This document shows, one piece after another, positions 14,738-33,482 of a DNA stretch of 64,000 nucleotides. Source of the stretch: an uncultured Clostridia bacterium. Its GTDB lineage: Bacteria > Bacillota > Clostridia > Christensenellales > CAG-314. The notes beneath the pieces were generated by a model, which worked only from the letters and a program-made list of their open reading frames with translations, did no database searches and was not told where the DNA came from. Positions within the stretch are counted from its first letter, which is position 1. Every line of letters starts with the position of its first letter. The stretch is taken from contig CANRFV010000007.1 of NCBI GenBank assembly GCA_947629985.1, positions 3,439 to 67,438 of the forward strand, read 5' to 3'. A program made the position numbers and the translations under genes.

Positions 14738-14816
14738 TCGATTGCAACTCGGGCATGAAGGACCCGATGCAAATAAATAAAAACTATTATATGGAGGAAA
14801 AAACAACAATGAAAAA
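14738..14816 (+). repeat. Outer inverted repeat, left copy (oppA1 leader/RBS)
   Basis: 14738-14805 is the exact reverse complement of 33415-33482 (68 bp); continues with a 1-nt indel through ATGAAAAA. Confidence 0.95.
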
Positions 14817-17490
14817 TTGGAAAAGACTATTGATCATAGTGTTGGTTGTCTGCATGATGACCGGCGTGTTGACAATAGTTGCTGCGTGCAATAAAGATTG
14901 CGGTATCGGCAAACATACAGACGATAACCACGACGGAATTTGCGACGTATGTAGTAAGGCAACTGTTTTCAAACACGTTGACGCAGATGGAGACAAAAAG
15001 TGCGACACTTGCGGAAAGGACATCGTTTACACGATGAACGATTACGTAAGCACCACACCTTCCAACTGGAATGAACTTAGTTCTACCGACGCAAACGATG
15101 ACGCTATTATGGGTTACATCGGTTCGTCGTTCTTCGGTTACGACTTCAAATTCGACGGTAACAAACGTAATGCAGACGGCACAATCAACGCCGCAGGTAT
15201 TATCGACGGTGAATTCGAAGTTACTTACGAAGCGGCAACCGCTCTCGAAGACGTAACGGAAGAATATGCGGAAGAATGGGATTATCTTACGGCTGCACAA
15301 GTTAAAGACGGCGGTTACATTTGGAAGATCACGTTGCGCGACGACCTTAAATGGGACGACGGCACACCCATCAAAGCGCAAGACTTTGTGTACACGATGG
15401 AACAACAATTGGATCCCAACTTCCAACTTGAACGTGCAAGCGAATACTACAACAACGCGGTAAAGATCCACAACGCAAAGAACTATTTGTATCAAGGACA
15501 AAAAGGTTGGTTTACCGGTCGTGCTTTCTCCGCTTACAGTGAAGATCTTGACGATATGTTGATATTTAGTTTGGGTAATCCCGAAGAAAACGCCGCTTAC
15601 AACGGAGTTGTTTGCGAAGTACGTACGGCTATAGGCTTCCCCGCAAATTATACGGCGGAAATGGTGGCAAAATACCTTATTCAAAACGGTATTAACAACA
15701 AGGTCGACGCGACAGTAGAAGAAATTGTCGCTTTGGAAGGCAAAACCCTTGCCGAAATCAAGGCAGATCCCGCTATGGAAGCGACCTGGAAGAAAGTTCT
15801 TGCAAGTTGGCAAACGGAACCCAACGAAGAACTCGACTTCTTTGTTGTAAACTACGAATATCCCGAAATGGACTTCAGTGAAGTTGGTATCTTTGCCGAA
15901 GGCGACTATGATATCGTATTGGTATGCGACAGCCCGATGCAATTCTTCAAAGATGACGGCACTCTGTCCTACTTGGCAGCTTACAACTTTGCCAGCCTGC
16001 CTCTTGTAAAGAAAGATCTGTATGAACAGTGCAAACACGAACCGCAAGCCGGTAGCACGCTGTGGACCACCACATACAACACTTCTCTCGAAACAAGCGC
16101 CAGCTGGGGTCCCTTCAAACTTACATACTTCCAAGCAGGCAGACAGTTCGAACTTTCTCGTAACGACAATTGGTACGGCTACGCCTTGGAAGAAAACAAA
16201 GGTTTGTATCCCGTTGACAAGATCGTAACGCAGGTAATCGAAACCGAAGCCAGTGCGCAATTGGCTTTCTGGAAAGGTCAAGTAGACAGCCTTGGTATCA
16301 GCGTAACCATTGCGGACGACTACAAGAACTCTCCGTATGCGATCTTCTCGCCGAGAGTTGCTACGTTCGGCGTACAAGTACAAGGTAACCTTGACGCTCT
16401 TGTAAAGAGCGGACGTAATAACGGTATACTTGCCATTCCCGAATTCCGTGAAGCGTTGTCGTTGAGCCTTGACAGAAACGAATACAACCGCAGACTGAGC
16501 ACGGCTAACCAACCTTGCTTGGGCTTGATGGGCGAAGACTACTACTACGACGTAGAAAACGGCGGCGTATATCGTTACAGCAAACAAGGTCAGGCTGCGT
16601 TGCTGCGTACTTACGGCTTTGAACAAAACGCTCAAGGTCAGTGGGTAGACAGCGCAACAGGTACCGTATATGCGTCTCAGGACGAAGCGGTTGAAGCGAT
16701 GACCGGCGTAAACCTTCCCCTTGCCAAAGAACTTGTAGAAAAAGCGTACAAAGAACTTGTTGACCACAAGGAAAAGTACAATTACGACGAAACTAAAAAT
16801 ATCGAAATTCAACTCGGCGCAGACTCTCCCGGCGAATCCGTAGACCGTACGGTTACGTTTATGCAGGAATGGGTTGACAATTTGACTTCCGGCACCAGCC
16901 TTGAAGGCAAAGTAAAGATCACTTCTCGTACAGACCTTGGCGAAGAATGGGCAGAAAAATTCCGCGATGGTACTTATGAATTGAGCACAAGCGGTATCGG
17001 TAACGCTCCGTTTGACCCCTTCTATCTGATGGCTGCCCACTTGGGTAACCTGCCCCAAGGCTCAAGCGTATCGTATCACCTGTATTGGGACGTTACTGCG
17101 GAAGATCTTGCAATAGCCATACCCGAAGTTGAAGGCGACTATGATCTCAAAGGCGAAACAGCAACGTTCTCTGTTGCAGAATGGTACAACATCCTTAACA
17201 GTCAATCCCAAGTTGCCAATCTCGGCGCAGGATTCGCTCCCGCGGCAGTGCGTCTTGAAATCTTGGCAAGATTGGAAGAATGTATATTGAAACACTATTA
17301 CACATTGCCCACCAGCCGTGGTATGACCGCTGCTCTTGGCAGTGCAAAATGGAGTTACATCACCAAGACCTACAACACAATGTTGGGATTTGGCGGAATG
17401 AAGTATATGACATTCAACTACGCCGATGACGAATGGGCAGCATTCGTACAAATGTACGGCGGCGACCTGAGAGACTTCTACAAAGGTTAA
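14809..17490 (+). CDS. oppA: Oligopeptide ABC substrate-binding lipoprotein (family 5), copy 1
   Basis: GGAGG RBS, lipobox IVAAC, LRDDLKWDDGTPIKAQDFVY, SWGPFKL, FREALSLSLDR. Confidence 0.9.
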   Translation: MKNWKRLLIIVLVVCMMTGVLTIVAACNKDCGIGKHTDDNHDGICDVCSKATVFKHVDADGDKKCDTCGKDIVYTMNDYVSTTPSNWNELSSTDANDDAIMGYIGSSFFGYDFKFDGNKRNADGTINAAGIIDGEFEVTYEAATALEDVTEEYAEEWDYLTAAQVKDGGYIWKITLRDDLKWDDGTPIKAQDFVYTMEQQLDPNFQLERASEYYNNAVKIHNAKNYLYQGQKGWFTGRAFSAYSEDLDDMLIFSLGNPEENAAYNGVVCEVRTAIGFPANYTAEMVAKYLIQNGINNKVDATVEEIVALEGKTLAEIKADPAMEATWKKVLASWQTEPNEELDFFVVNYEYPEMDFSEVGIFAEGDYDIVLVCDSPMQFFKDDGTLSYLAAYNFASLPLVKKDLYEQCKHEPQAGSTLWTTTYNTSLETSASWGPFKLTYFQAGRQFELSRNDNWYGYALEENKGLYPVDKIVTQVIETEASAQLAFWKGQVDSLGISVTIADDYKNSPYAIFSPRVATFGVQVQGNLDALVKSGRNNGILAIPEFREALSLSLDRNEYNRRLSTANQPCLGLMGEDYYYDVENGGVYRYSKQGQAALLRTYGFEQNAQGQWVDSATGTVYASQDEAVEAMTGVNLPLAKELVEKAYKELVDHKEKYNYDETKNIEIQLGADSPGESVDRTVTFMQEWVDNLTSGTSLEGKVKITSRTDLGEEWAEKFRDGTYELSTSGIGNAPFDPFYLMAAHLGNLPQGSSVSYHLYWDVTAEDLAIAIPEVEGDYDLKGETATFSVAEWYNILNSQSQVANLGAGFAPAAVRLEILARLEECILKHYYTLPTSRGMTAALGSAKWSYITKTYNTMLGFGGMKYMTFNYADDEWAAFVQMYGGDLRDFYKG

Positions 17491-17515
17491 TGTAGATTGT
17501 TTGTAATACTCAGCA

Positions 17516-17553
17516 CTTGATAGCGGGGGTGCAAACGCACCCCCGCTATTTAA
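17516..17553 (+). promoter_or_regulatory. Intercistronic stem-loop after oppA1 (mRNA stabiliser or partial terminator)
   Basis: ATAGCGGGGGTGC-AAAC-GCACCCCCGCTAT with a weak T-run. Confidence 0.7.
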
Positions 17554-17577
17554 GTAGTTACAAGGAGGAACAACTTT

Positions 17578-18585
17578 ATGTATATGTTCAAATACGTGCT
17601 TAAACGCTTGGCATTGATGTTGATGTGTTTTGCAATAATAATGCTTATGTGTTTTGTACTGATAAAAATGTTGCCCATTATTGTTACGGGAACGTTCGGC
17701 GTGGACACAAATATTCAGTATCTTAAATTGGAAGCACGCGGATACATAACAAACTTGCGTTGGGAAGGCACGCGAATTGTCGGTTTTGACAAGGTACCCA
17801 TACTAAAACAGCTGTGGCTATATCTTCAACGTATCTTCAGGGACGGGGACTTCGGTATTGGCACAAGTATGCCGCAATACGAAGGCAAACCCGTGTGGGA
17901 CGCATTTGTGTCCAGATTGCCCCCGACAATATTGATAAACATCTATTCCAGCCTGATAGGCGTACCTATCGGCTTGGGCTTGGGCATACTTGCCGCGCTT
18001 AAAAAGAACACTTGGATAGACCACGTAATAAGTACGGGCGTTATCGTGCTTATTTCGGTGCCGTCCATTGTTTACGCGCTGCTGATACTGTATGTGCTGT
18101 GCTTCAAGTTGCAACTGTTTCCGTTGCGAATGGACGCGGGAACCGACTACCTTAGTTGGTCGATGTTCAAGAGTATGATGCCGGCAACGCTGTCGCTGTG
18201 CTTGGGCAGTATTGCGGGCTATGCGCGCTTTACCCGCGCCGAACTTACCGAAGTGCTTACAAGCGAATTTATGCTGCTTGCGCGCACAAAGGGACTTACC
18301 CGCGGGCAAGCGACTGTGCGCCACGCTATGCGCAACAGCATGGTGCCCATCTTCCCCAGCATTTTGTCGGAATTTATTGCGGTTTTGTCGGGGTCGCTTA
18401 TTATCGAGCAGATGTTCAGCATTCCCGGCGTGGGCAGACTGTATCTTGACGCTATCAATGCCAAGGACTACGACTTCTTTATGTTGCTGTCGGGTTTCTA
18501 CTGCTTGGTGGGACTTGCGGCAGGCATTGTTGTAGATATAAGTTACGGATTTATCGATCCGCGTATCAGAATGGGGGCGAGATAA
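17578..18585 (+). CDS. oppB: Oligopeptide ABC permease OppB, copy 1
   Basis: LARTKGL EAA-type motif, GSLIIEQMFSIPGVG, DPRIR. Confidence 0.92.
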   Translation: MYMFKYVLKRLALMLMCFAIIMLMCFVLIKMLPIIVTGTFGVDTNIQYLKLEARGYITNLRWEGTRIVGFDKVPILKQLWLYLQRIFRDGDFGIGTSMPQYEGKPVWDAFVSRLPPTILINIYSSLIGVPIGLGLGILAALKKNTWIDHVISTGVIVLISVPSIVYALLILYVLCFKLQLFPLRMDAGTDYLSWSMFKSMMPATLSLCLGSIAGYARFTRAELTEVLTSEFMLLARTKGLTRGQATVRHAMRNSMVPIFPSILSEFIAVLSGSLIIEQMFSIPGVGRLYLDAINAKDYDFFMLLSGFYCLVGLAAGIVVDISYGFIDPRIRMGAR

Positions 18586-18586
18586 T

Positions 18587-20179
18587 ATGGCAGAAATCAA
18601 AAATATCCCGCAGGAAAAATTTAAGTTTGTCGGCGACAAAAACCTGTCGCACGACGTCAAGTTGGAAACAAAACCACGCAGTTATTTGCACGACGCTTTC
18701 AGCCGCTTTTGCAAAAACAAAGGTTCGGTTGTTGCCGCGTGCGTAATTGTGGTATTGGTTTTGTTTGCAATAATTACCCCGTGGTGTACGCCGTATCAGG
18801 TGTCGTACAACGACCCCAACTTTGCATTTGCATTGCCCAAATCGCATTTGTTTGAAAACACGAACTTTTGGGACGGCTGTGCGGTAAAGAGAGTGGGTTT
18901 TCACGACTTTATTATCAACTACGCTATCAGCACCGAACTTAACGACGCCAAGGAAGGCAACGGCGGACACAACGTTATCAAGAACGAAGAGTACGAAGTT
19001 GTAACCGACGACGCAAGCGGCTCTACGCTGTACGTGTATCGCGAAGACTCGTACCACAAATTGGGCACGATCTACAAACAGGTAAACGTAGAAGAATACG
19101 AAATGATACAAAAGTATCAGGACGAAACGGGCAATCAGGTAATTTACCCCACCGTTCGTCCGAGCGATCGCCCCAAGGCAAGCCAGGACAACAACAACGC
19201 CAATTACTATTTCAAGACGCAAATGGTAAACAACAAGACGGAAATAGTGCTTGACGACAACGGCAACGTAATACCCGTTTATTGGCAGCAACCCGCTGCC
19301 GACATCAACGACGGATACCATTCGCTGCGTATCGAAGGACAGCAGGGTATCCAACGCGACGGCACAACTTATTACAACGTTTACGCCAGAAATGTTGCCG
19401 GCGGCGACGTGGAATTGCGCATAAATTACTACGAGTATTACATTTTCAGACACGCGTACGTGCTTAAAGACGGCATTACCGAACCGTACTTTGTGTTCGG
19501 CGCAACCGACTCGGGCAGAGATATACTTACGTGTCTGGCAAGCGGCGCTCGGTTCAGTTTTATATTTGCAATTGCCATTGCGGTTGTAAATATGTTCATC
19601 GGCGCAATATGGGGTGCGATTGCCGGCTACTACGGCGGAGCAATAGACCTTACAATGGAACGTATTACCGACGTATTGAGCGCTATTCCTATGATGATAG
19701 TTATTACTTTGCTTAAATATCACATGGAAGAAACCAGCCAAATACTTATACTGTTCCTGGCGTTTATCGCAACGGGTTGGATAGGTATGGCAAGCACGGT
19801 GCGTATGCAGTTTTACCGTTTCAAAAACCAGGAATACGTACTTGCGGCGCGCACGTTGGGCGCAACGGATTGGCGGGTAATGTGGAAACACATCTTCCCC
19901 AACAGTTTGGGCACGCTTGTTACAAGTTGCGCGTTGGTAATTCCCAGCATGATATTCTCGGAAACAAGCCTTACGTATTTGGGCATTATCAGCCTTACGT
20001 CGGGTAACATTACAAGCGTAGGTACGCTTATTGCCGCGGGACAACCGTTTTTGACAAGTTTCCCCCATATAGTTGCATTCCCGTCGGTATTTTTGGCGTT
20101 GCTTATGTTAAGTTTCAACCTATTTGGCAACGGATTGCGGGACGCATTCAATCCTACGTTGCGAGGATCGGAGGGTTAA
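18587..20179 (+). CDS. oppC: Oligopeptide ABC permease OppC, copy 1, with large extracytoplasmic loop
   Basis: FGATDSGRD, EYVLAARTLGA, KHIFPN, GNGLRDAFNP. Confidence 0.92.
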   Translation: MAEIKNIPQEKFKFVGDKNLSHDVKLETKPRSYLHDAFSRFCKNKGSVVAACVIVVLVLFAIITPWCTPYQVSYNDPNFAFALPKSHLFENTNFWDGCAVKRVGFHDFIINYAISTELNDAKEGNGGHNVIKNEEYEVVTDDASGSTLYVYREDSYHKLGTIYKQVNVEEYEMIQKYQDETGNQVIYPTVRPSDRPKASQDNNNANYYFKTQMVNNKTEIVLDDNGNVIPVYWQQPAADINDGYHSLRIEGQQGIQRDGTTYYNVYARNVAGGDVELRINYYEYYIFRHAYVLKDGITEPYFVFGATDSGRDILTCLASGARFSFIFAIAIAVVNMFIGAIWGAIAGYYGGAIDLTMERITDVLSAIPMMIVITLLKYHMEETSQILILFLAFIATGWIGMASTVRMQFYRFKNQEYVLAARTLGATDWRVMWKHIFPNSLGTLVTSCALVIPSMIFSETSLTYLGIISLTSGNITSVGTLIAAGQPFLTSFPHIVAFPSVFLALLMLSFNLFGNGLRDAFNPTLRGSEG

Positions 20180-20183
20180 GGCG

Positions 20184-22364
20184 ATGGAGAAGAAGTTAGA
20201 AGTAAAGAATTTAGTCATATCCTTCCGAACGGACGCGGGCAAGGTGCAAGCGGTAAGGGACATATCTTTTGACCTATACAAAGGCGAGACGTTGGCAATA
20301 GTAGGCGAATCGGGCAGCGGCAAGTCGGTAACCAACCGAGCGGTAATGGGGATACTTGCAGGCAACGGAATGATCGAAGGCGGCGAGATAATCTACGACG
20401 GGCAGGACTTGGTACAGATCTCGGAAGAAGATTTTCACAAGTTGCGCGGAGACAAGATAGCGATGATCTTCCAGGATCCGTTATCCAGCCTTAACCCCAT
20501 AATGCGAGTAGGCAAGCAATTGACGGAAGCGATGTTATTGAAAGGCAGAGCGAGTCAGCGTAATGCCCGCAAGATATTCAACGGCAAGTTAAAGTTGCTT
20601 AATGCCGCCATGGACGAAGTAGCGCAAGGCGACTCTGCAAAGGTAAGCGAAAACAACGGCAAATGCCATACCTTCGATACTTTTTGCATAAACAGCACCA
20701 AGTTAGAGAGCAAGTACAACGAAATACACCGTGCGGCGGAAGAGTTGCAATTAGACATAGACGACTGTGTATTCTTGTTGGAAAAGAAGCAGAAAGTAGA
20801 TATTAAAGCGAAAGTAACGGCGTTTGTAAAGAGAGTAGACAGTACGTTGCATCCGGACATAGTAGTAAAGGACGAGCAATTGACCGAGTTGCTTGCGCAG
20901 TTATCCGAAAGCGGCAATGTTGCTTCTGCCAAGATACACGAAGGCGAAACGGGTTACGTAACGGAAACGTTAATACCGTTATTAAAGCAACTAAGCGGCA
21001 TATTGGGGCAAGCGTGTGCCAAGGACAAACCCAATTACTTTACGTTAGGGTATTATATGATGCGCAATCCCGAAGCGAATTTGGACAATATGCCCATAGA
21101 AGAACTTACGGAGATGACGCGCAAGTATCTTGACGAAGAGTTTATGTTAGGGTTTATTGACGACGGCGCGCAAGGGTTGCAGTACAGTCATAACAAGAGC
21201 ATAGCGTTAAAGAAAGAGTTGCTGACGGCAACGGACGAAGTATTGGAATATTTCCGCAACGAGCAATTGGACAAGAAAGTTGCATACGACAAAGTAAATG
21301 CAATAGCCAAGCAGGAAGAAGCGGCAATAGACAGGCTGGAAGTAATAAAGAACAGTGTGGAATACACATTCCGCAGCAGTATACATTCGGCATTGAAGAA
21401 ATACTTTGCGGGGTTAGCGAAGAACCCGAAGGAAGAGCGCAGATTCGAGCGTCAGACAGCCAAGCGGGAAGCGTTAATAGCCAAGGGCAAGACGCCGGAT
21501 TGGAAGGTAGTACCTGCGGCGTTGTTCGACTTGGAGTTAGGCAGAAAGAATATTAGAGCGGTATTGCACTCGTTAAGGGCAAGCATACGTAAAGACTTGG
21601 ATAGCGACAGCGCATACGACGCCAAAGCGAAGATGGTAAATTTAATAGACTATCTTAAAGAGCAAGCGTCCGCGGTGGTATACAAAGTAACGCCCAAGAT
21701 GGCTAAAGCCAAAGCGTTAAAGTTATTGGAAGAAGTAGGCATACCCGAACCGGCAATAAGATACAGACAGTATCCGTTTGAGTTCAGCGGGGGAATGCGT
21801 CAAAGGATAGTAATAGCCATAGCGTTGGCGGCTAATCCGGACATACTAATATGCGACGAGCCCACTACTGCATTGGACGTAACGATACAAGCGCAGATAT
21901 TGGAACTAATAAACCGCATAAAGGCGGAGCGGCACTTATCTGTAATATTTATTACGCACAACTTAGGCGTAGTAGCGAACATGGCAGACAGGATAGCGGT
22001 AATGTATGCGGGCAAGATAGTAGAATACGGCACGGCAGACGATGTATTTTACGATCCGCGGCACCCGTACACTTGGGCGTTGTTGTCGAGTATGCCCGAC
22101 TTAGAGACCAAAGAGAAGTTGGAAGCGATACCGGGCACACCGCCGAACATGATCTTTCCGCCGAAAGGGGACGCGTTTGCGGCGCGTAACAAGTTTGCGA
22201 TGGAGATAGACTTTGAAGAGCAGCCGCCGATGTTTAAGATAAGCGACACACACTATGCGGCTACCTGGTTATTGCATCCCAACGCGCCGAAAGTAGAACC
22301 TCCCAAGATAGTAACGGACAGGATAGAGAGAATGAAGAAGAAGGAGGCGGAGAGCAATGGCTGA
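20184..22364 (+). CDS. oppD: Oligopeptide ABC ATPase OppD, copy 1, with ~390-aa helical insertion
   Basis: [35 protein letters not shown]; start at MEKKLEV. Confidence 0.92.
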   Translation: MEKKLEVKNLVISFRTDAGKVQAVRDISFDLYKGETLAIVGESGSGKSVTNRAVMGILAGNGMIEGGEIIYDGQDLVQISEEDFHKLRGDKIAMIFQDPLSSLNPIMRVGKQLTEAMLLKGRASQRNARKIFNGKLKLLNAAMDEVAQGDSAKVSENNGKCHTFDTFCINSTKLESKYNEIHRAAEELQLDIDDCVFLLEKKQKVDIKAKVTAFVKRVDSTLHPDIVVKDEQLTELLAQLSESGNVASAKIHEGETGYVTETLIPLLKQLSGILGQACAKDKPNYFTLGYYMMRNPEANLDNMPIEELTEMTRKYLDEEFMLGFIDDGAQGLQYSHNKSIALKKELLTATDEVLEYFRNEQLDKKVAYDKVNAIAKQEEAAIDRLEVIKNSVEYTFRSSIHSALKKYFAGLAKNPKEERRFERQTAKREALIAKGKTPDWKVVPAALFDLELGRKNIRAVLHSLRASIRKDLDSDSAYDAKAKMVNLIDYLKEQASAVVYKVTPKMAKAKALKLLEEVGIPEPAIRYRQYPFEFSGGMRQRIVIAIALAANPDILICDEPTTALDVTIQAQILELINRIKAERHLSVIFITHNLGVVANMADRIAVMYAGKIVEYGTADDVFYDPRHPYTWALLSSMPDLETKEKLEAIPGTPPNMIFPPKGDAFAARNKFAMEIDFEEQPPMFKISDTHYAATWLLHPNAPKVEPPKIVTDRIERMKKKEAESNG

Positions 22365-23643
22365 AAAGGAAGTATTGTTGTCGGTGCAGCATCTTGAACA
22401 ATTTTTCAAGATGGGCAAGCAGCAGTTGAAAGCGGTAAACGACGTATCCTTCGACATATACAAAGGCGAAGTATTCGGATTGGTAGGCGAGTCGGGATGT
22501 GGCAAGACCACGACAGGACGGTCCATAATTAGGTTATACGACATAACGGGAGGATCGGTATATTTTCGCGGGCAGCGGATATGTGCTGGAACCAGACGTT
22601 ACAAGGAAGCGATCAAGGTAGCGCGAGACAAACTGAAAGCGCAGGTAAAGGAACTGAATACCGAGAAAGCGAAAGAGACGGAAGGTATAACCGACGAGAG
22701 CGTACTCAAACAGATAGAAGAGAAATATGCTGCGGCGATAAAGGAGAAGGAAGCGGAGTTCAAGGCGGTAGCGGACGAGCAAAGCGAAGAGATACGCAAA
22801 GCGAAGTTTGACCACAAGAATTGCAACCGCGAGTATGCGAAAGCGCAGCAAAAGAGAGTAGACGACGAATATCTGCCGAAGATAGAGAGAGCGGGCACGC
22901 AGGAAGAGAAGGACGCTTTAACTGCGGAATACAGAAATGCGCGCAAGTTAGCGGGGAAAGACAGGATCACGAACAAGATACAGATGATCTTTCAGGACCC
23001 GATAGCGTCGTTGGATCCGCGAATGACCGTACGCGAGATAATAGCGGAAGGGTTGGTAATACGCGGAATAAAGGACAAAGAGAAGATAAACGAGATGGTA
23101 TTTAAGGTATTGGACCTTGTAGGTTTGGTACCTGAGCATGCCAACAGATACCCGCATGAATTCAGCGGCGGACAGAGACAGCGTATAGGTATAGCGCGGG
23201 CGATAATCTTAGAGCCCGAGTTGATAATAGCCGACGAGCCCATAAGCGCGTTGGACGTATCTATACAGGCGCAGGTAATAAACCTGCTGAACGAGTTGCG
23301 AAACAGATTAGGGTTGACGATACTGTTTATTGCGCACGACCTGTCGGTAGTAAAGTATTTCAGCGACAGGATAGCGGTAATGTATTTCGGGAACTTAGTG
23401 GAGTTGACGACGAGCGACGAGTTATTTGCGCATCCGTTGCACCCGTACACGAAGAGTTTGCTTTCGGCGATACCGGTGCCCGATCCGCACTACGAAAAGC
23501 AGCGCAAGCGTATAACGTACAATCCGATAGCGTCGCACGATTACAGTGTAGACAAGCCGAGTTTACGGGAAGTAAAGCCGGGGCACTATGTACACTGCAA
23601 CGACGAAGAGTTTGTGCGGTACCAAGAAGAACTGAAAGAGTAA
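22357..23643 (+). CDS. oppF: Oligopeptide ABC ATPase OppF, copy 1, with coiled-coil insertion
   Basis: GESGCGKT, IFQDP, FSGGQRQR, IADEPISALD. Confidence 0.92.
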   Translation: MAEKEVLLSVQHLEQFFKMGKQQLKAVNDVSFDIYKGEVFGLVGESGCGKTTTGRSIIRLYDITGGSVYFRGQRICAGTRRYKEAIKVARDKLKAQVKELNTEKAKETEGITDESVLKQIEEKYAAAIKEKEAEFKAVADEQSEEIRKAKFDHKNCNREYAKAQQKRVDDEYLPKIERAGTQEEKDALTAEYRNARKLAGKDRITNKIQMIFQDPIASLDPRMTVREIIAEGLVIRGIKDKEKINEMVFKVLDLVGLVPEHANRYPHEFSGGQRQRIGIARAIILEPELIIADEPISALDVSIQAQVINLLNELRNRLGLTILFIAHDLSVVKYFSDRIAVMYFGNLVELTTSDELFAHPLHPYTKSLLSAIPVPDPHYEKQRKRITYNPIASHDYSVDKPSLREVKPGHYVHCNDEEFVRYQEELKE

Positions 23644-24659: not shown

Positions 24660-24667
24660 GCCGTTGG

Positions 24668-24995: not shown

Positions 24996-25115
24996 ACATT
25001 TTGCTAAAATATTGTTGCAAAACCGAGTTTATAGTTGATTGTGTATCTTTGCCGACTTGCTATCGCAATAAACTCAAAATAATTATTCGGCGATTGCATT
25101 AAACTCACAAAAACA

Positions 25116-25310
25116 TTACAATACCCCGAAAATTAACATTGCAATTACCGTTAACAGAATCAATATTATAATACAAGGCAGCACTATTACCAATATTGCG
25201 GAAACAATCATGGCAAAGCGATCATGTTTTTCTAACTGTGTAGACATGTATTCCTTATATTCTTTTTCCTTGTCTTTGTTCGGTTTTTTGATAATTTTAA
25301 AAAATTTCAT
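25116..25310 (-). CDS. Small membrane protein at the end of opp operon 2
   Basis: 64 aa, charged N-terminus plus long hydrophobic helix; ATGA overlap with oppF2 stop. Confidence 0.7.
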   Translation of the reverse strand: MKFFKIIKKPNKDKEKEYKEYMSTQLEKHDRFAMIVSAILVIVLPCIIILILLTVIAMLIFGVL

Positions 25311-26950
25311 TCGAGATTTTCGTTTTTTTGTACAGTCTCTGCGGAGCGGTTGACTTTTTTCTCAGTATTAACTTCAAACAAATATTCGCCATTTTCCATT
25401 TTTCTTTCCGGACGATGACAAGCAACAAAATGTCCCGGTTTGATTTCCACAAGAGGCGGCGGAACCCGTTTACATTCATCGCAAGCCATATAGCAACGTG
25501 TGTGGAATTTACAACCTTCCGGCGGAAAAATCGGGCTTGGAATGTTCCCTTCCAACAAGATGCGTTCTTTGTCGAGACTGTCTGCGTCCGTAGTGGGAAT
25601 ACTGCTCAATAACGCAAGCGTGTAAGGATGCCGCGGGTCATTGAATAATTCTGCCGCATCGGCACATTCGACAATATTTCCCAAGTACATTACAATAATT
25701 TTGTCGGAGATATATCTTACTACGGACAAATCGTGGGAGATAAACAAGTATGTAAGATTGTCCTTGTCCTTTAACTCTTGCAACAGGTTAATTATTTGCG
25801 ATTGTATAGATACGTCAAGTGCGGAAACACATTCGTCGCAAACTACAAATTTGGGCTGAACTGCAAGAGCGCGCGCAATACAAATACGTTGTCTTTGACC
25901 ACCGCTAAATTGATGCGGATAGCGATGCAGCATATAATCTTGCAATCCACACTCGTCCATTACATTTAAAATATATTGTTTTAATGCGTCCGTTCCGTGA
26001 GCAAACATCTTGTGTGTTACAAGTCCTTCTTCGATTATTTGCCCAACAGTCATACGAGGGTTAAGCGACGAATACGGATCTTGAAAGATTATTTGCAAAT
26101 CTCTGCGCAAAAAACGCATTTCGCTGTATTTAAGTCGTGAAAGATCAATTCCGCTGTCCAGCAAATTTTCATACTTTACAAATTCGGCATTGTCTGCAAA
26201 ACGCGCCTTTTCATCTTCTAACTGTTGTCTTATTGCAATTCGTAGTTCTTCAAGATGTTCAATTGCAAGGTTATGTTTGGCGTTTTCTTGTTCGATAGCT
26301 GTAATTTTTTTATCAATTCGCGCTTGTAATTTACAGTTGGTCGCTTTTGAACGCTTTTCTTGCAATAGTTCCGTTTTGGTACGATTCAACGCAATAGCAT
26401 TTTTGTGTCGAGCAATTTCCACGTGATTGGCGTGGCGTTTTTTCAGCAAATTTATCCCGTTGGTATTGTCGCTTACGGCCATAAATCCGCCAACAATGCT
26501 TGCTACGTCAGTAAGCGCCTTTTGCGCTGCACCTTTTAGTAAAATTTCTTGTTGAAGTTGAAAGAATGACGCTTCTTTGCCGAGTTTTTCACATTCATCC
26601 GTAATTTTATCCGCTTTTTCTTGCGCCTTGCGGTAGCGTTGAATGTATTTGTGTACGTGATTTAAAGTATCGTATACATAATGTGGCGCCACTTCGGAAC
26701 GGCTACGGCCATAATACATTGTAGTGCCTGCCGTTTGGTCGTATAATTGCAATATTACTCTGCCCAGCGTAGATTTGCCGCATCCGCTTTCACCGACAAT
26801 ACCGATCGTTTCGCCCTCGTATACATCAAAACTTATATCTTCGTTTGCACGAACATAAAGTTGATTACGTTGAAAAATGCTTTTTTTCGCAACAGGAAAG
26901 TATTTTTTTAAATTTGTTATAGACAGCAACTTTTTTCGTTCATCTGACAT
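25307..26950 (-). CDS. oppF: Oligopeptide ABC ATPase OppF, copy 2, with ~220-aa insertion
   Basis: GESGCGKS, IFQDPYSSLNP, FSGGQRQR, VCDECVSALD, GCKFHTRC; start MSDERKK. Confidence 0.92.
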   Translation of the reverse strand: MSDERKKLLSITNLKKYFPVAKKSIFQRNQLYVRANEDISFDVYEGETIGIVGESGCGKSTLGRVILQLYDQTAGTTMYYGRSRSEVAPHYVYDTLNHVHKYIQRYRKAQEKADKITDECEKLGKEASFFQLQQEILLKGAAQKALTDVASIVGGFMAVSDNTNGINLLKKRHANHVEIARHKNAIALNRTKTELLQEKRSKATNCKLQARIDKKITAIEQENAKHNLAIEHLEELRIAIRQQLEDEKARFADNAEFVKYENLLDSGIDLSRLKYSEMRFLRRDLQIIFQDPYSSLNPRMTVGQIIEEGLVTHKMFAHGTDALKQYILNVMDECGLQDYMLHRYPHQFSGGQRQRICIARALAVQPKFVVCDECVSALDVSIQSQIINLLQELKDKDNLTYLFISHDLSVVRYISDKIIVMYLGNIVECADAAELFNDPRHPYTLALLSSIPTTDADSLDKERILLEGNIPSPIFPPEGCKFHTRCYMACDECKRVPPPLVEIKPGHFVACHRPERKMENGEYLFEVNTEKKVNRSAETVQKNENLE

Positions 26951-27932
26951 TTTTCTGTCTTTCCTCCTTACTTGGATAAAAACATCTGACCAATTGCCCC
27001 GGGGCAACTTCTTCCAATATTGGTTCTTCGTCTATGCAACGTTGAGTGCAGTATTTGCAGCGTGGAGCAAATTTACATCCCTTGGGAAGCGCCAATGGGT
27101 GCGGTACCGCGCCCGGGATCGGCTCCAACTTTGTACTGATATTATCTAAGCGCGGAATACTATACATTAGACCTTCTGTATAGGGGTGGCTTAATGCACA
27201 ATTGCTGAATATTACTCTTGCAGAGGCTTTTTCCACAACCTGTCCGCAATACATTACAACTACATCGTCTGCCATTTCGTTTATTACGCCGAGATCATGC
27301 GTTATAAATATAATGGAGGTGCCATTTTCGCGTTGAAGATCGTTCATCAGTTTAAGAATCTGCGCCTGTATCGTTACGTCCAATGCCGTTGTAGGTTCGT
27401 CTGCAATTAAAATTTTTGGTTTGCAAGCAAGCGCCATTGCTATCATTACGCGTTGACGCATACCGCCGGAAAGTTGGTGCGGATACTGACGCGCAACCGC
27501 TTCCGGGTTGGGAATTTGTACGGCATAAAGCATTTCTATTGCTTTTTGTGCGGCTTCCTTTTTGGTCATGTTTTGATGTATCATAAACGGTTCGCTTAAT
27601 TGTTTAGATACGGTAAATACGGGGTTTAAACTTGTCATCGGTTCCTGAAAGATTACGGAAATTTTGTTTCCCCTTATCTGATACATATCTTGCAATTTAA
27701 GTTTGGTAAGGTCGGTCCCTTCAAACATTATTTCGCCGTCTGCAATATAACCGTTGCCGTCCAACAATTGCAATATGCTCATTGCCGAAACGGATTTGCC
27801 GCTGCCCGATTCGCCTACTACGCCGAGCGTTTTGCCTTCCTGCACTTCGTAACTTACGTCGTTAACTGCTTTTACAATGCCTTTGCGTGTTTTGAAATAG
27901 GTATGGAGATTTTTAACTTCAAGTAATGCCAT
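26940..27932 (-). CDS. oppD: Oligopeptide ABC ATPase OppD, copy 2
   Basis: [34 protein letters not shown]. Confidence 0.93.
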
Positions 27933-27944
27933 AATGTTTACCTC

Positions 27945-29996
27945 CTACCTTTCCGAATTGGATTTGGGATCGAAAATATCCCGCAATGTATCGCCTATAA
28001 TATTGACGCAAATAGTAGATATTCCCAAGAAAATGGACGGGAATAGCCATTGCCACCAATAGTTTTGTATAACGATACTGTTATTGCTACCGTTGAGCAT
28101 ATTGCCCCAGGTCGGTTGCGGTTGTTGCACGCCGAACCCCAAATAACTAAGGCTCGACTCGGTCAACATACACCCCGCAAAGTCCAACGTAAGACTTACA
28201 AGTATAACGGAAATAACATTAGGCAAAATGTGTTTAAATGCAATTCTGCGTTCTTTTACGCCCATTGCCTTGGCTGCAACAACAAATTCCTTTTCGCGTT
28301 CGGCAAGCACTTGTCCTCTGATCATGTGAGCCAAGCCTGTCCAGGATAACACACCCAAAATGCACATGATAATAAATATGCGCATCGTTTCGTTGTCGTT
28401 GAGAGGCGTGCTTCGTATAACCATAGACAACATCATTGCAAAAGGCAAAAACGGTATTGCCGAGAATATTTCGGATATTCTCATGAGCAACATATCTACC
28501 CAACCGCCAAAGTAGCCCGCCACACATCCTACTATAATGGCGATAATCGTGGAAATAATAACTGCAACCGCGCCGATAGTCATTGTCATAGTACCGCCAT
28601 GAACAATTCGAGCAAACATATCTCTGCCCATGTTATCGGTTCCCATCAAATAGCCTTTTAGTCCGCACGATTTAACAAGTTGCGCCTCGTCGTTTATTGC
28701 ATAGGTTTGCAATGATACTGCGTACACGTCGGAAATGTTTGTAGTGGAATCCAACTGTGTTTGCTTGTAAAAATTGCTGCCCCAGCAGTGCAGTACGCCA
28801 TTCTCCGTTACTGCGGCAAAATGTTTTGTTCCGGCAGAAATCTTTACATATTTATCGCCGTTTTCCAATACGGGAACTTTGTCCTCGTTGTTTTCGAAAA
28901 TGCCGCTCATGTAAACTTGTCCGTCGCTTGTAACAACGCCCAGTGCATAGTTGCTTGCGGCAATGTCAATTGCCTTTTTGCCTTCAAGCGCAGTCAATGT
29001 AAATTGCTGGTTTGATCCGATATTTACTGTGCCATCTTTTAAAAGTGCAATCGCCGCCGAATTGCCCAGCACAATTTTTTCGACATTTGTAAGCTGCGCT
29101 ATTTCGGACAAATTTCGTGTTGTATTTAGATTGCCCCAAGCATATACCGAACCGTCTTTCATAACAATTGCAGTGGTTTGATTGCCGCAAACAAGTTCGC
29201 TTACATTAGATACGTCTATTGTGCCTTCTACCAATTCTTTCGGTTCGGGAAGCACTCCGAGATTTTCTTCGCCGCCGTACTGTCCGCTGTTATTAGAGCC
29301 CCAACCAAAAACTTTTCCGTCGGTGGTAATAGCGATAATATGGTCTACGCCGGCAGCGGCAAATGCCACTTTGTTGCTATCAAATCCTTCTGGTAGTTCT
29401 TTAAGGTTTATTTGCGCCACACGCAACTTTGCGTCTCCCCAAATAAACATTTCGTTGTCATTGCTTACTCCAACGGTAAAACTGCCGAAACTGCTTATTG
29501 AACGAATATTGTTTTTAAGACGGCGAGGTACGCTTCGCATTGAATAATTCGGCGCAACATTTTTTTGTGTGGTGTCGGTTGCATTCAAGTCAATTGAAAT
29601 AAACATCGGTCCCACAAATACAAATAGAAACATCGCAATCAACACTACGAGCGCCGCTACGGCAAGTTTTTTGCGGAAAAAGGCTTTTAACGTCATTTTT
29701 GACGGACTTTCCAATTTTTCCACAGCAAACACATCGTCGTTTACCAACTCTTTGCTTGCTCCCCAAAAAGTTCGTTTTATCCAACGCCACACAGTTTTAA
29801 GTGCTTTTAATACGCCGTGTCCTACAGTTACAAAAAATGCCGTAAATTTGTTTGTAGGTTGCGCTGTTTTTTGATTGGATTCGGTTTGTAAATCGGATTT
29901 TTCCGTAACTTTTTCCGTATTTTCAACTTCTAACATAAGTTGTTCTGTTTCGGGGGCATATTGTTCTTTTTTTGTTGTTTGTTTATTGTTGCTCAT
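27945..29996 (-). CDS. oppC: Oligopeptide ABC permease OppC, copy 2, with inserted RCC1/BLIP-II-like repeats
   Basis: MGTDNMGRD, EFVVAAKAMG, KHILPN; about seven AG..H..A.T.DG.V..WG.N-type repeats in the loop. Confidence 0.9.
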   Translation of the reverse strand: MSNNKQTTKKEQYAPETEQLMLEVENTEKVTEKSDLQTESNQKTAQPTNKFTAFFVTVGHGVLKALKTVWRWIKRTFWGASKELVNDDVFAVEKLESPSKMTLKAFFRKKLAVAALVVLIAMFLFVFVGPMFISIDLNATDTTQKNVAPNYSMRSVPRRLKNNIRSISSFGSFTVGVSNDNEMFIWGDAKLRVAQINLKELPEGFDSNKVAFAAAGVDHIIAITTDGKVFGWGSNNSGQYGGEENLGVLPEPKELVEGTIDVSNVSELVCGNQTTAIVMKDGSVYAWGNLNTTRNLSEIAQLTNVEKIVLGNSAAIALLKDGTVNIGSNQQFTLTALEGKKAIDIAASNYALGVVTSDGQVYMSGIFENNEDKVPVLENGDKYVKISAGTKHFAAVTENGVLHCWGSNFYKQTQLDSTTNISDVYAVSLQTYAINDEAQLVKSCGLKGYLMGTDNMGRDMFARIVHGGTMTMTIGAVAVIISTIIAIIVGCVAGYFGGWVDMLLMRISEIFSAIPFLPFAMMLSMVIRSTPLNDNETMRIFIIMCILGVLSWTGLAHMIRGQVLAEREKEFVVAAKAMGVKERRIAFKHILPNVISVILVSLTLDFAGCMLTESSLSYLGFGVQQPQPTWGNMLNGSNNSIVIQNYWWQWLFPSIFLGISTICVNIIGDTLRDIFDPKSNSER

Positions 29997-30008
29997 AATA
30001 TCCCCCCC

Positions 30009-31034
30009 TTACTTATTAACTCTTATTCGCGGGTCAATAAATCCATATAAGATGTCTATCAAAAGATTGCCAAGCAATCCTATTACAATATAAAACATTT
30101 GTAATGCCAATATAACGTCATTATCTCTATTAGTCAGTGCCTGATAATACACCCTTCCTATTCCGTTGATCGCAAAAAGGTTTTCTACCATTATCGAACC
30201 GGAGAAAATACCCAAAAACCAGCCTACTACAAGCGTAACTATGGGAATAAGAGCATTTCGCCAAGCATGAGAATATATTACAACTTTCTCTTTTACGCCT
30301 TTTGCGCGGGCTGTGCGAATACAGTCCATAGACAGCGCTTCGATCATTGACGCGCGAACATAGCGCGTCATGCCACCGAGACTGCAAAATGTCATTATAA
30401 TCAACGGCAGACAAAAGTGATACATTTCGTCCCAAAAATATGCCCAAGTTCCCGGTTCGAGATTTTTGCCGGGAGTTATCATACCGCTTACGGGGAAAAT
30501 TCTCAATTCGATTGAGAACAGCCACAAAAACAGTATTGCAATAATAAAGGTAGGCAAACTATAGCCTATAATGGTGCCGACCTGTATGCCTATATCTCGT
30601 TTGCTACCCTTTTTTACCGCACAAAATATTCCCAACGGAATGGTAATACCCAATCCGAGAATTGTTGCAAAGATGTTGAGCAAAACCGTGTTTTTCATCG
30701 GGGCTTTTATTACCTCGGAAACGGGCTTGTTATAATAGGTGGACTTTCCCAGTTCGCCCTCTAACAGACCGCGATATGCGCCGTCTGAAAACGGGTATAC
30801 ACCCAACCAACGCAGATATTGCTCGACCAACGTACCGTCTAATCCGTAATACTTTTGCCAATAGGCGTATCTGTCTTCATATTTCAATGTGCCGTGGCTG
30901 TTTTTTACTTCTTCGGTTGCAGTTTGCGCCGCTATGTCTCCCGGCATTAAACTGTAAATAGAGTAAATCATAAAAGACAGTATCAGCATTACAAGTAATA
31001 TGTAGAAAATACGTTTTACTATATATTTTGCCAT
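30009..31034 (-). CDS. oppB: Oligopeptide ABC permease OppB, copy 2
   Basis: TARAKGV, HAWRNALIP, DPRIR. Confidence 0.92.
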   Translation of the reverse strand: MAKYIVKRIFYILLVMLILSFMIYSIYSLMPGDIAAQTATEEVKNSHGTLKYEDRYAYWQKYYGLDGTLVEQYLRWLGVYPFSDGAYRGLLEGELGKSTYYNKPVSEVIKAPMKNTVLLNIFATILGLGITIPLGIFCAVKKGSKRDIGIQVGTIIGYSLPTFIIAILFLWLFSIELRIFPVSGMITPGKNLEPGTWAYFWDEMYHFCLPLIIMTFCSLGGMTRYVRASMIEALSMDCIRTARAKGVKEKVVIYSHAWRNALIPIVTLVVGWFLGIFSGSIMVENLFAINGIGRVYYQALTNRDNDVILALQMFYIVIGLLGNLLIDILYGFIDPRIRVNK

Positions 31035-31091
31035 AAAGTGTTCTCCGCTGTTATGTTGATAAAGTTAACAGTTTGTGTGCTGCTAAAATTA

Positions 31092-31129
31092 GCAATGTAC
31101 GGAGTAACATTGCGCTACTCCGTACTTGC
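31092..31129 (-). promoter_or_regulatory. Intercistronic stem-loop after oppA2
   Basis: GTACGGAGTA...TACTCCGTAC stem. Confidence 0.6.
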
Positions 31130-31159
31130 ATTATATTTTATTACAAATTGTAGCTGTTG

Positions 31160-33412
31160 CTATTTAGTCTGGTAATCCGCCCAGAAATCGGCAGGATCCA
31201 TCAATTGCATATTGTAATCCGCATAGTATTCAGGATTGATACTCCAATTTAACGAGAAGTCGTAAACAGCGCTGGTAAAACCGGTTGCAAAGTTCACAGC
31301 CGATACGTTGGGGTGGTCTCCTCTGCTGTAACCGTACTGTTCCATTTGTTGGTAATCTCCGTACAAAAGGGGATTGAATTCGCCTTCTGTGCAAGTTACA
31401 TACATACCAAGGTCTTTTACCGTTTGCGATTCAGCCCAGCTGGTCTTTAACAAATCCGTAACTTCGTTGGGTTGCGTTCCGCTCCAGTTGATTACCAACG
31501 GAATAAGGTATCTGCTGCTACCGTCTTTGTTTTCCAGACGAACCGTACCGTATTTACCGTCGGTCGACTCGTACTGAATGTTTGCAACGGACAGGTAGTT
31601 ACCGGTAAGTTCTTTGTATCTTACAGTATCTTTGCCGGGACGGAATTCTTGTCCTTTTTCATTGAGCGTCCAACCGTTATCGGTAAGAAGTTTAAGAGCA
31701 GTGTCTTTATTTGCGGTATATTGATTAAGTTTAATTGTGTCTTTGTTTGCTTGGAAAGCGTCCATACCTTCGTAATACGGACCGTGTACAACCGTACCGT
31801 AACCGCCGGTAAATGTTGTCGCAAAGTCATTACGGTTAATAGAGTACATAATCGCCTGACGTACTTCTACAAATTGCGTCGCGCCGTAATCGCATTTGAA
31901 AGCAAGTTTACCGTAGCCCGCGCGGTCATAGTGCGTTTCCTTAAATTGCGGATTGTCGCCTTTGGTAAGTGCCAAAGCCGCTTCGGTATCGGCTGCGCCG
32001 GTTATACCTTCAAGAAGGTTGACTTCGCCGTTTTTAAGCATATCCGTTTGAGTTTCGGAAACTATCTTTACATAGGTTATTTCTGTAATATTGCCTTCTT
32101 TCAACTCGCCGTTATCGTTGAATTTGCGATAATCTTCGGTTACATATTGATCGTTTTTCGCAAGTACAGCGGTATGCGTTCCTTGGTCGTAACTCTTTAC
32201 GACAAACGGTCCGGAGTAAGCGAATTTACTTGCGTCAAGTTCGTGAATATTTTCGTTGATTTTTTTCGCATTTGTATATACTTCCGCACCGGATTCGGTC
32301 GATTTAGCATAAAATTCGTCGCTAAGACCTACAGCCTTTGTTTCGGGGTCTACTTGCAATTCTGTTCCGCAGAGATAAATATCTACGTCAACAGGCGAAA
32401 AACCGGCATATGTTACTGCATAGTAGTAATCGGCATAATCGGGGTTGATAGTAACAGAGAATTTGTATGTATCAAGTTTTTTAATACCGCTAAGCCACTT
32501 GGACGCCGTAACTTTGTTAACGGTTTTGCCGTCATTTGTTCCATCGTATGCGGCAAATGCGGCTGCCCCAGCCAAACTCGGACTTACCGAAGAGTTTCCG
32601 CCTGCGGCACCGTACAGGGGCGATTGACCCACAACGCTTGCTGCGATATAGTTATCTGCGGTAATTTCGCTACCGTCGCTGAGTTTAAGACCCTGCTTTA
32701 TTTCTATCGTATAAGTTAAGAAACCTTTTTCGTCAATAACGCCTTCGTCGTGCGAAGCAACAACGTCATCGTTCCATATATAGGCTCCGCCGCTTGTGGC
32801 AACAACGGTGTCGTATCCGCTTGTAAGGTTGCTTATGGCAAGGTCGCTGGCTCCCGGGCTGGATTTTCCGAATGAAGGCTCACGGAACTCACCGCTAAGG
32901 TCTGTTGTGTTACCGATAATTATTTTACCGTCGGTTGACGTTGCCCCCACAACTGCTTTTGCAGCGTCCCAGAAAGGAGACGTCTGGAATTGTCCGATTT
33001 TAGCGGCATAAATATCAAAGTATTGGTTAGAGTAAAGGGGAATTTCGGGAACCATCTGATTCCAACGCTGAATGTACAATTTCCACCATTCGTTGTAAAC
33101 GTCTTCGCGCGTTTCCCATTTACCGTCTTCGGGGACAGAGCAGTTGTAAACCATTGCCATGGACAAAAAGTCAAGTCCCAAAGTATATGTAATACCATCA
33201 ACAGTTACGGTAGCAACGCCGTTTGCGTCTTCTTTAACTTGGTCGATAGTTACTTTAGAACCGATTTTGTCGTAGACTGACGTAAAATCTGTTCTTTCGT
33301 TAGCATCACCTATCCATTCGGATCTGTTAACATCTTTTTGGCACGCTGTAAGTCCCAGTGTCAAAACAAGTATGACAGCCACAAGACAGGCAATCAGTTT
33401 TGCTTTTTTCAT
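31160..33412 (-). CDS. oppA: Oligopeptide ABC substrate-binding lipoprotein (family 5), copy 2, apparently circularly permuted
   Basis: Lipobox LTAC, LKLSDGSEITADNY, SGPFVV, VRQAIMYSINR. Confidence 0.85.
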   Translation of the reverse strand: MKKAKLIACLVAVILVLTLGLTACQKDVNRSEWIGDANERTDFTSVYDKIGSKVTIDQVKEDANGVATVTVDGITYTLGLDFLSMAMVYNCSVPEDGKWETREDVYNEWWKLYIQRWNQMVPEIPLYSNQYFDIYAAKIGQFQTSPFWDAAKAVVGATSTDGKIIIGNTTDLSGEFREPSFGKSSPGASDLAISNLTSGYDTVVATSGGAYIWNDDVVASHDEGVIDEKGFLTYTIEIKQGLKLSDGSEITADNYIAASVVGQSPLYGAAGGNSSVSPSLAGAAAFAAYDGTNDGKTVNKVTASKWLSGIKKLDTYKFSVTINPDYADYYYAVTYAGFSPVDVDIYLCGTELQVDPETKAVGLSDEFYAKSTESGAEVYTNAKKINENIHELDASKFAYSGPFVVKSYDQGTHTAVLAKNDQYVTEDYRKFNDNGELKEGNITEITYVKIVSETQTDMLKNGEVNLLEGITGAADTEAALALTKGDNPQFKETHYDRAGYGKLAFKCDYGATQFVEVRQAIMYSINRNDFATTFTGGYGTVVHGPYYEGMDAFQANKDTIKLNQYTANKDTALKLLTDNGWTLNEKGQEFRPGKDTVRYKELTGNYLSVANIQYESTDGKYGTVRLENKDGSSRYLIPLVINWSGTQPNEVTDLLKTSWAESQTVKDLGMYVTCTEGEFNPLLYGDYQQMEQYGYSRGDHPNVSAVNFATGFTSAVYDFSLNWSINPEYYADYNMQLMDPADFWADYQTK

Positions 33413-33482
33413 TGTGTTTTTTCCTCCATATAATAGTTTTTATTTATTTGCATCGGGTCCTTCATGCCCGAGTTGCAATCGA
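33405..33482 (-). repeat. Outer inverted repeat, right copy (oppA2 leader/RBS)
   Basis: Reverse complement of 14738-14816. Confidence 0.95.

Follow-up and report, generated by a model that had tools for sequence, protein, structure and literature searches.

This report concerns two oligopeptide-importer (opp) operons which stand tail-to-tail behind inverted copies of one leader sequence in the DNA of an uncultured Clostridia bacterium; the whole stretch analysed, 64,000 nucleotides, is called the window. By analogy, the closest known systems appear to be the expression-site switches sap of Campylobacter fetus and vpma of Mycoplasma. According to what Dworkin and Blaser are said to have found, inversion between conserved 5' regions of sap places a silent, full-length gene behind one promoter, and the process is reportedly largely RecA-dependent, with no dedicated invertase nearby. 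In sap the invertible element includes the promoter, each cassette is one gene and the repeats comprise about 600 bp, whereas in the window the promoter is located outside, the cassettes are five-gene operons of 8-9 kb, the repeat has 68 nt and flipping is a proposal. The sap inversion and a recA-disrupted mutant are mentioned in citing passages of PMC5634654.

The vpma locus of Mycoplasma agalactiae (and vsp and vsa) is described in PMC5634654 as having a unique promoter or expression site, silent lipoprotein genes, recombination in the conserved 5' regions and a recombinase gene beside the locus, which resembles the arrangement proposed for the window. Rearrangements in vivo which occur independently of the recombinase are reported as well (PMC5634654). 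Yet vpma uses the tyrosine recombinase Xer1 and each of its genes is small and stands alone; the window has no tyrosine recombinase close by, a DDE transposase is adjacent and whole operons are involved.

For programmed inversions, the survey of Milman et al. (PMC9881135) reports an enrichment of genes in tail-to-tail order whose 5' ends carry repeats, and of pairs in which the start-site (TSS) region is missing from one member. The window shows a similar arrangement, i.e., tail-to-tail genes, repeats near the 5' ends and, by prediction, one copy without the TSS-proximal part. In the same survey inverted regions are described as short, recombinases as often adjacent and ABC (ATP-binding cassette) transporters as depleted (PMC9881135). 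Unlike these examples, the outer segment in the window has 18.6 kb, and regulation would be swapped, not coding sequence.

Capsule and O-antigen loci undergo allelic replacement of variable cassettes between conserved flanks. The opp locus resembles them in that hypervariable oppA, oppB and oppC are positioned between the leader and oppD/oppF or flanking genes, and in that three cassette types, 1, 2 and 3, are encountered at one slot. However, a genome has a single cassette at a capsule or O-antigen locus, whereas two cassettes, inverted relative to each other, are present in four species here. From sap and vpma the locus is set apart by a cargo of whole ABC-importer operons, by the lack of a classical invertase and by a conserved transposase of the insertion-sequence family IS3 at its boundary. 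We believe, with moderate confidence, that this is a recombination-driven two-slot locus of importer operons in which occasional crossovers invert an 18.6-kb block and thereby swap the importer behind the promoter.

Two divergent operons behind one leader

Operon 1 (type 1) extends from 14809 to 23643 on the + strand, operon 2 (type 2) from 33412 to 25116 on the - strand. The initial annotation had described two complete, highly divergent Opp-type operons in tail-to-tail order, and this is borne out. The operons are convergent and all ten proteins contain the expected Pfam domains: each operon specifies one SBP_bac_5 protein, two BPD_transp_1 permeases and two ABC_tran + oligo_HPY ATPases, the domain set of a putative Opp/Dpp-type peptide importer. 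By BLASTP the binding proteins OppA1 and OppA2 are not significantly similar (best E 0.11); in the translations each has a signal peptide of the lipoprotein type at its start.

The similarity resides ahead of the genes. Reading of both strands and alignment of the upstream regions confirmed that 14738-14805 is the exact reverse complement of 33415-33482, a perfect inverted repeat of 68 bp. A repeat finder called arms at 14735-14816 and 33404-33485 (82 nt, 93% complementary); a 1-nt indel just before each ATG ends the perfect 68-nt core. The assembly which holds the window, G000, is a metagenome-assembled genome (MAG) of 157 contigs and 2.37 Mb, 93% complete and with a contamination estimate of 3.3%; the window lies on its 80-kb contig C7. 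The 82-mer has seven matches in the whole of G000, and only at the two arms is E<1e-30, the other five having E>=0.17. The identity of the outer repeat is far beyond chance.

Each arm represents one unit, module B, which consists of a hairpin with the base TTGCA/TGCAA, an A-rich spacer and a GGAGG ribosome-binding site. The left arm (14738-14805, +) is module B of operon 1, the right arm (33415-33482, -) that of operon 2. The left-arm hairpin has -12 kcal/mol and a z-score of -3.28; none of 200 shuffles was as good. A third homology block, absent from the initial annotation, is located further upstream. This module A starts with TATTGAT and comprises a small hairpin, degenerate here, and an A-rich tail in its slot-1 copy (14688-14731, +). 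The slot-2 copy (33609-33652, -) is 82% identical to it over 44 nt; about 121 extra nucleotides part it from the 68-mer. Module A is present in both slots of G000, G007 and G022 and at both contig ends of G018, the four genomes of the genus with two slots, and was found in none of the single-slot leaders extracted. The extra stretch between modules B and A (33483-33608, -, about 121-126 nt) exists only in slot 2 of G000 and is absent from the slot-2 leaders of G007 and G022. Four TTGCGG-like repeats lie in it, spaced about 20 nt apart. A 19-nt A/T-rich inverted repeat (33611-33629 and 33672-33690) flanks module A in slot 2. By eye, a similar bracket is present in G007, G018 and G022; in slot 1 the outer motif copy has direct orientation.

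The two leader copies have evolved in concert. Over 78 nt they are 96% identical within G000 and 97% within G007, and in G018 at least 75 nt match without a difference before the contigs end. Between genomes the 78-nt leader is 58-79% identical, and a shared cassette type brings no greater likeness: the three type-1 leaders agree at 67-79%. By these alignments the leader is seen to follow the genome, not the cassette. The shared stretch starts at TATTGAT in all four two-slot genomes and stops a few bases from the start codon in the three with contigs reaching there. Both repeat pairs of G000, the outer one and the inner one at the 3' ends of the operons, look like fresh conversion tracts in older homology, with 68 of 68 positions identical beside 82% and 194 of 198 beside about 70%. 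From the leader identity together with these tracts it follows that at least three of the four lineages probably still recombine their inverted copies. The contigs of G007 and G022 break off where two oppD copies converge, with 88% and 92% identity extending to the break; in addition, G007 has two partial oppD copies at the ends of contigs, G018 has one and G022 has none. This fits a long inverted repeat left unassembled in G007 and G022.

The hairpin of module B is not confined to two-slot genomes. The region upstream of oppA was taken from 16 leaders of 13 genus genomes, and single folds placed the hairpin at an equal distance from the start codon in all 16. The base of the stem is constant; its upper part varies between genomes yet remains complementary. 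Thirteen of the 16 leaders were compared with 200 shuffles each, near-duplicates being omitted, i.e., the second copies in G000 and G007, plus G049. The fold z-scores ranged from -1.5 to -4.3; in four leaders no shuffle was as stable, in the other nine 1 to 13 of the 200 were. RNAalifold on a MAFFT alignment of the 16 hairpin regions returned 0 pairs because stems of unequal length were misaligned, and single folds with shuffles were used instead. As the hairpin is kept across the leaders, those of single-operon genomes included, it is a conserved leader feature of opp operons in the genus. Its role may be in mRNA stability or in translation of the binding-protein gene. A CsrA site in the hairpin loop (GGA) was considered and dropped, as GGA is missing from the loops of the relatives.

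Predicted promoter and attenuator-like leader in slot 1

A sigma-70-type promoter is predicted upstream of operon 1 at 14453-14482 (+), with TTGACG, a spacing of 18 nt and TAAAAT with TG. For operon 2 the same consensus scan predicted none in 33413-33860, which agrees with the asymmetry claimed in the initial annotation. All frames of operon 2 are open in spite of this. On the operon strand of slot 2 no sigma-70-like site was found by the scan in G000, G007 or G022; in G018 there is one weak match of 9/12, inside the start region of the IS3 element. In most of 16 genomes the same -35 and TG-extended -10 were seen by eye upstream of a conserved leader. A conserved TGGCA motif upstream of slot 2 was examined as a sigma-54 promoter and rejected: in G000, at 93% completeness, no match to Sigma54_DBD and thus no sigma-54 gene was found, and neither G000 nor G007 retains the spacing.

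Between the promoter and the repeat, in slot 1 only, lies an attenuator-like 5' leader of about 170 nt (14489-14660, +) with a closing stem and a T-run. Its sequence blocks are conserved upstream of the opp locus in 16 genomes of the genus, and its core motif occurs a single time in G000. Rfam 15 gave no match at gathering score in the window, and only chance-level scores (E>3) in 14380-14830; thus the leader is no known riboswitch or T-box. Folded alone, the G000 leader is no better than shuffles (z -0.77), and RNAalifold on the 16 leaders gave nine pairs, two of them with compensatory changes. With folds this weak, the conservation is established, the structure is not. We regard 14489-14660 as a candidate for a new attenuator or riboswitch.

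The locus in related genomes

The comparison covered species representatives, 47 genomes of the genus and 82 of the family. In G000, G007, G018 and G022 the layout is common: M1 peptidase, promoter and attenuator-like leader, operon, inverted operon, IS3 element and S10 operon. The left anchor is a conserved M1-family peptidase gene (12551-14068, -, Pfam Peptidase_M1), present in 45 of the 47 genus genomes and located beside the opp leader wherever an opp operon and a readable context are present. The conserved right anchor is the start of the S10 ribosomal-protein operon (35132-36382, +) with its promoter at 35132-35161, a leader and the first genes, i.e., an open reading frame (ORF) at 35422-35730, called S10 by position only, and L3 at 35756-36382.

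The surroundings of the peptidase gene were viewed in 10 genomes. In six of them the order is peptidase, one opp operon, DUF3899 gene, S10/L3 operon; in two, G007 and G022, the contig ends inside the operon; in G008 (locus L029) and G014 (L040) the peptidase is directly beside the S10/L3 operon and the whole opp locus is missing. By a BLASTP matrix three types of operon occupy the peptidase slot. Type 1, like operon 1, occurs in G022 and G049 and, more distantly, in G020 and G006; type 3 in G047, G045, G062 and G007. Type 2, like operon 2, is found at this slot in G052, G041 and G009, and OppA2-like proteins are encoded in five of the 47 genus genomes including G000. G020 and G049 differ in OppB and OppC as well as in OppA (see below); their OppD/OppF pairs, each compared with operon 1, score alike at 70-73%.

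On further contigs of G007 and G022 the second slot comes into view: its opp operon is directed away from an IS3-transposase orthologue, beyond which the S10 operon begins, exactly as at 33412-36382. In G018 the same two flanks are present, and both contigs end inside identical leader copies. G000 has type 1 in slot 1 and type 2 in slot 2, G007 has type 3 in slot 1 and type 1 in slot 2, and G022 has type 1 in slot 1 and type 3 in slot 2. Thus, when orientation is compared in related MAGs, as had been advised, the pair of cassette types found in G007 recurs in G022 between the same flanks, but with the slots exchanged. OppA of G007 slot 1 is 81-86% identical to that of G022 slot 2; OppA of G007 slot 2 is 58% identical to that of G022 slot 1 and 69% to OppA1 of G000. 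Exchanged slots are the outcome predicted by a flip of the block; replacement is also possible.

For the phylogeny and ALTERNATIVES, the M1-peptidase tree comprised 15 of the 47 genomes, those with fetched loci. The two-slot genomes do not form one clade. G018 and G022 are sisters and G000 stands outside their group; G007 groups with G018 and G022 and also with G008, G014 and G052, which have no second slot. Given this scatter, losses or transfer between co-resident species must be assumed.

Contigs from metagenomic runs

The runs which contain this DNA are labelled rabbit gut metagenomes. Positions 14400-34399 were compared with the k=31 assembled contigs of four runs (X1, X5, X7, X9); such contigs break at repeats of 31 nt or more and therefore can neither show nor exclude a minority orientation. 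In X1, a possible source run, the contigs break off within both arms, as a perfect repeat that exceeds k would make them do. In X7 a contig passes through the left arm and from 14816 continues into a different signal-peptide start. Thus in some strain the same leader precedes a third cassette. Depth in X7 differs between the two operons; as the depth of contigs is no basis for ranking genes, no weight was given to it. In X9 a joint between 14779 and 33441 on opposite strands would match an inversion. It was not counted: it is carried by one contig of depth 2.85 with a shorter side of 39 nt, and about 12 discriminating letters decide it, which fit the starts of other cassettes too (likeness 92). 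No X9 contig of at least 92% likeness covers 25072-33075, while parts of operon 1 and 33601-34399 are covered; an X9 strain may be devoid of operon 2, and the gap in cover was not counted as evidence.

Recombinases and the resident IS3 transposase

The initial annotation had stated that no tyrosine or serine invertase is encoded in the window. This is correct: G000 has 15 matches to PF00589 and 22 to PF00239, none of them on the 80-kb contig C7, and enzymes of the Piv/IS110 type were not searched for. Many of these matches are on short contigs. With 2.37 Mb G000 is well above most relatives in the genus (1.2-1.8 Mb; a few at 2.1-2.3 Mb), and it may be rich in mobile elements or hold some foreign contigs.

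The only recombinase-like gene nearby, absent from the initial annotation, is an IS3-family element next to the right arm (33861-35059, +; Pfam rve/HTH_21), with orfA at 33861-34172 and orfB, which reaches 35059 in the -1 frame. G000 has one copy of the element, and its site is the same in all four two-slot genomes (window 33861-35059; L042 6065-7222; L043 6703-7851; L054 228-1406). In each of them the A7 slippery site, both open frames and the D, D, E motifs are conserved. Four of the 47 genus genomes possess it, none of the other 43 having a copy above 60% identity, and these four are also the only ones among the 82 family genomes. Pairwise ratios of nonsynonymous to synonymous divergence (dN/dS) of 0.04-0.16 at a dS of 0.57-2.8 indicate strong purifying selection. 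Convincing terminal inverted repeats were not detected, the best candidate having 34 nt at 71%, and with a single copy in G000 and a constant site in four species there is no sign of mobility. Searches with OrfB retrieved 37 loci from metagenome contigs, none an orthologue (best 54% over part of the query). From contigs of species-representative genomes only the three MAGs already known were retrieved, at 73-75%, the next being at most 45%. Its persistence in intact form at a single site through this much divergence is the behaviour of a host, or domesticated, gene. Conservative inversion is not a known activity of IS3-family DDE transposases.

Proposed mechanism and rival explanations

In the mechanism we favour the locus would be a two-slot store of alternative oligopeptide ABC-importer operons. 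Slot 1, beside the M1 peptidase, has the only recognisable promoter, a predicted one, and the conserved attenuator-like leader; slot 2, inverted beside the IS3 element and the S10 operon, is without a recognisable promoter. Since both operons share the leader, it would serve as a portable homology block as well. RecA-type homologous recombination between the inverted leaders would keep the copies identical via gene conversion, and resolution of an intermediate as a crossover would invert the 18.6-kb block, bringing the other operon behind promoter and attenuator. We infer that slot 2 is silent, that inversion occurs in this species and that inversion, rather than replacement, made the swap between G007 and G022. 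The frequency would probably be low, a matter of strains, not of colonies; inversion or exchange on evolutionary timescales is likely. Hence, the claim of the initial annotation that a crossover flips the block and moves operon 2 behind the promoter is partly supported, by the geometry, the predicted promoter asymmetry, the conversion tracts and the swapped slots, yet the flip itself has not been seen directly.

Several observations weigh against this mechanism. Contigs of X5, which is from an independent study, bridge the arms (14688-15432 and 24952-33652) in the reference orientation only, a minority being invisible at k=31, and with the same limitation no sample among the four runs has both orientations. 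The orientation check proposed earlier thus confirmed the arrangement of the window at both arms and, with contigs only, did not demonstrate the flipped form. At 33436 the operon-2 leader carries two extra T in X5 and three in X7; the repeat is therefore not perfect in every strain. The two leaders of G022 are only 79% alike, no better than leaders between genomes, so that homogenisation is not universal. The absence of a slot-2 promoter is that of the consensus scan alone. Hairpin and ribosome-binding site are conserved in single-slot genomes too, which means that selection for leader function alone explains part of the similarity, and the presence of the repeat alone implies no switch. Among predicted programmed inversions, the Milman survey finds ABC-transporter genes depleted with odds ratios of 0.34-0.57 (PMC9881135). 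G020 (L033) and G049 (L037) have near-identical M1 peptidases, yet at the same slot their OppA proteins are only 24-28% alike, which indicates a recent replacement of the oppABC module. Further, the cassette types have diverged unequally between G007 and G022 (81-86% versus 58%). A single flip therefore cannot be the whole history; cassettes are replaced by foreign DNA, and such replacement could swap slots without inversion.

These observations would be accommodated if the operons were static paralogues, both expressed from promoters of their own and never inverted in this species, with the leader kept by its RNA function and occasional conversion, and with the differences between species due to cassette replacement from co-resident relatives. 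We consider this rather unlikely, though it is the rival to be taken most seriously. The conserved hairpin and ribosome-binding site of single-slot genomes, the one orientation bridged in X5, the replacement between G020 and G049, the unequal divergence in G007 and G022 and the X7 contig with a third signal-peptide start (a loose end at 14816) are all in line with it. However, what selection on an RNA hairpin preserves is base pairing and not the identity of 68 letters out of 68, and the stems do vary freely between genomes; a promoter-like site for slot 2 was not found in three of the four genomes; and conversion between inverted copies implies the same recombination intermediates as inversions. 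At the other extreme, inversion at the leader could be frequent and programmed by an enzyme, either a distant tyrosine or serine recombinase or the resident IS3 transposase as a trigger. The constant outer edge of the shared leader at TATTGAT in all four genomes, the restriction of module A to two-slot genomes, the intact single-copy IS3 gene at one site in all four with its dN/dS of 0.04-0.16 and the 15 PF00589 and 22 PF00239 matches elsewhere in G000 would suit such a programme. It is nevertheless improbable: the 80-kb contig has no tyrosine or serine recombinase, conservative inversion by IS3 DDE transposases is not known, the association of IS3 and operon is possibly historical and due to one insertion, run contigs display no minority orientation, and the diverged leaders of G022 speak against a strictly maintained site. 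The phase switch suggested by the initial annotation, if taken as frequent programmed inversion, is accordingly unproven, considering the single orientation in X5, the conserved leader of single-operon genomes and the replacement alternative. Finally, two strain variants of one locus might have been joined by the assembler through the repeats, no cell having both operons. G000 is a MAG of 157 contigs with 3.3% estimated contamination, and contigs of its probable source run break at both repeats. Yet the sequence on both sides of each arm is unique, single X5 contigs cross each arm with the same neighbours, two-slot junctions were assembled independently in G007 and G022, where the G022 leaders are too different for misjoins, and the inner copies, 88% alike overall, form no collapsed node. 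Such an artefact is very improbable.

A speculative extension, to which we assign slightly less credence than to a programmed inversion in general, views the locus as a switching device. The immobilised IS3 transposase would nick or break DNA by the silent leader and so provoke recombination with the expressed copy, while a nested inner inversion would swap the C-terminus of a DUF3899 protein. Parallels to such a trigger are Piv in Moraxella, and the domesticated transposases and the HO endonuclease which start mating-type switching in yeasts.

The inner inverted repeat and further features

The second inverted repeat, reported by the initial annotation at the 3' ends of the operons, is real: 23939-24136 (+) and 24798-24995 are identical at 194 of 198 positions. 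It is embedded in a repeat of 276 nt with 88% identity overall; outside the 198 nt similarity falls to about 70%. The left arm lies in an intact gene for a small DUF3899 membrane protein (23703-24251, +, Pfam DUF3899 E 5e-15). The right arm lies in an inverted, 5'-truncated copy (24668-24995, -) which aligns with the C-terminal two thirds of the intact one and has a stop codon upstream. In the single-slot relatives of types 1 and 3 that were examined, the operon is likewise followed by a DUF3899 gene. The pair has, by its sequence, what seems a classic gene-altering inversion layout and closely fits the pattern given in the survey of Milman et al. (PMC9881135). About 660 bp separate the arms, and inversion would exchange the last ~38 residues of the protein. 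Run contigs break at the inner repeat, leaving the orientation there unreadable. The spacer between the copies (24256-24440) contains tandem-like repeats, with three different deletions or replacements in X7 contigs.

The genes of operon 1 (all +) are oppA1 (14809-17490, lipoprotein), oppB1 (17578-18585), oppC1 (18587-20179), oppD1 (20124-22364) and oppF1 (22357-23643). The true start of oppD1 is probably near 20181, since oppD matches of relatives start at about query residue 20. OppD1 has 746 aa and an insert of about 380 aa between the halves of the ATPase domain, kept in relatives at 65-83% identity. Operon 2 (all -) comprises oppA2 (33412-31160, lipoprotein), oppB2 (31034-30009), oppC2 (29996-27945), oppD2 (27932-26940), oppF2 (27007-25307) and an ORF for a membrane protein of 64 aa (25310-25116). 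The N-terminal half of OppC2 has RCC1 repeats, and OppF2, with 566 aa, has an N-terminal or internal extension.

Significance

If the block flips, one recombination event would let these uncultured gut Clostridia replace a complete peptide importer at their surface, and the one regulated expression site would be retained. The exchange would affect the binding lipoprotein and the permeases with their large extracellular inserts. Expression-site switching, as in adhesins, S-layers and restriction specificity genes, would then extend to nutrient-uptake operons of 8-9 kb. Two further items are of interest in their own right, a conserved opp leader RNA which belongs to no Rfam family and an IS3 transposase which behaves like a host gene. 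If there is no fast switching, the comparison of genomes still reveals a hot spot: between conserved blocks, co-resident species exchange their oppABC cassettes, a variation of the kind expected under phage- or niche-driven diversifying selection.

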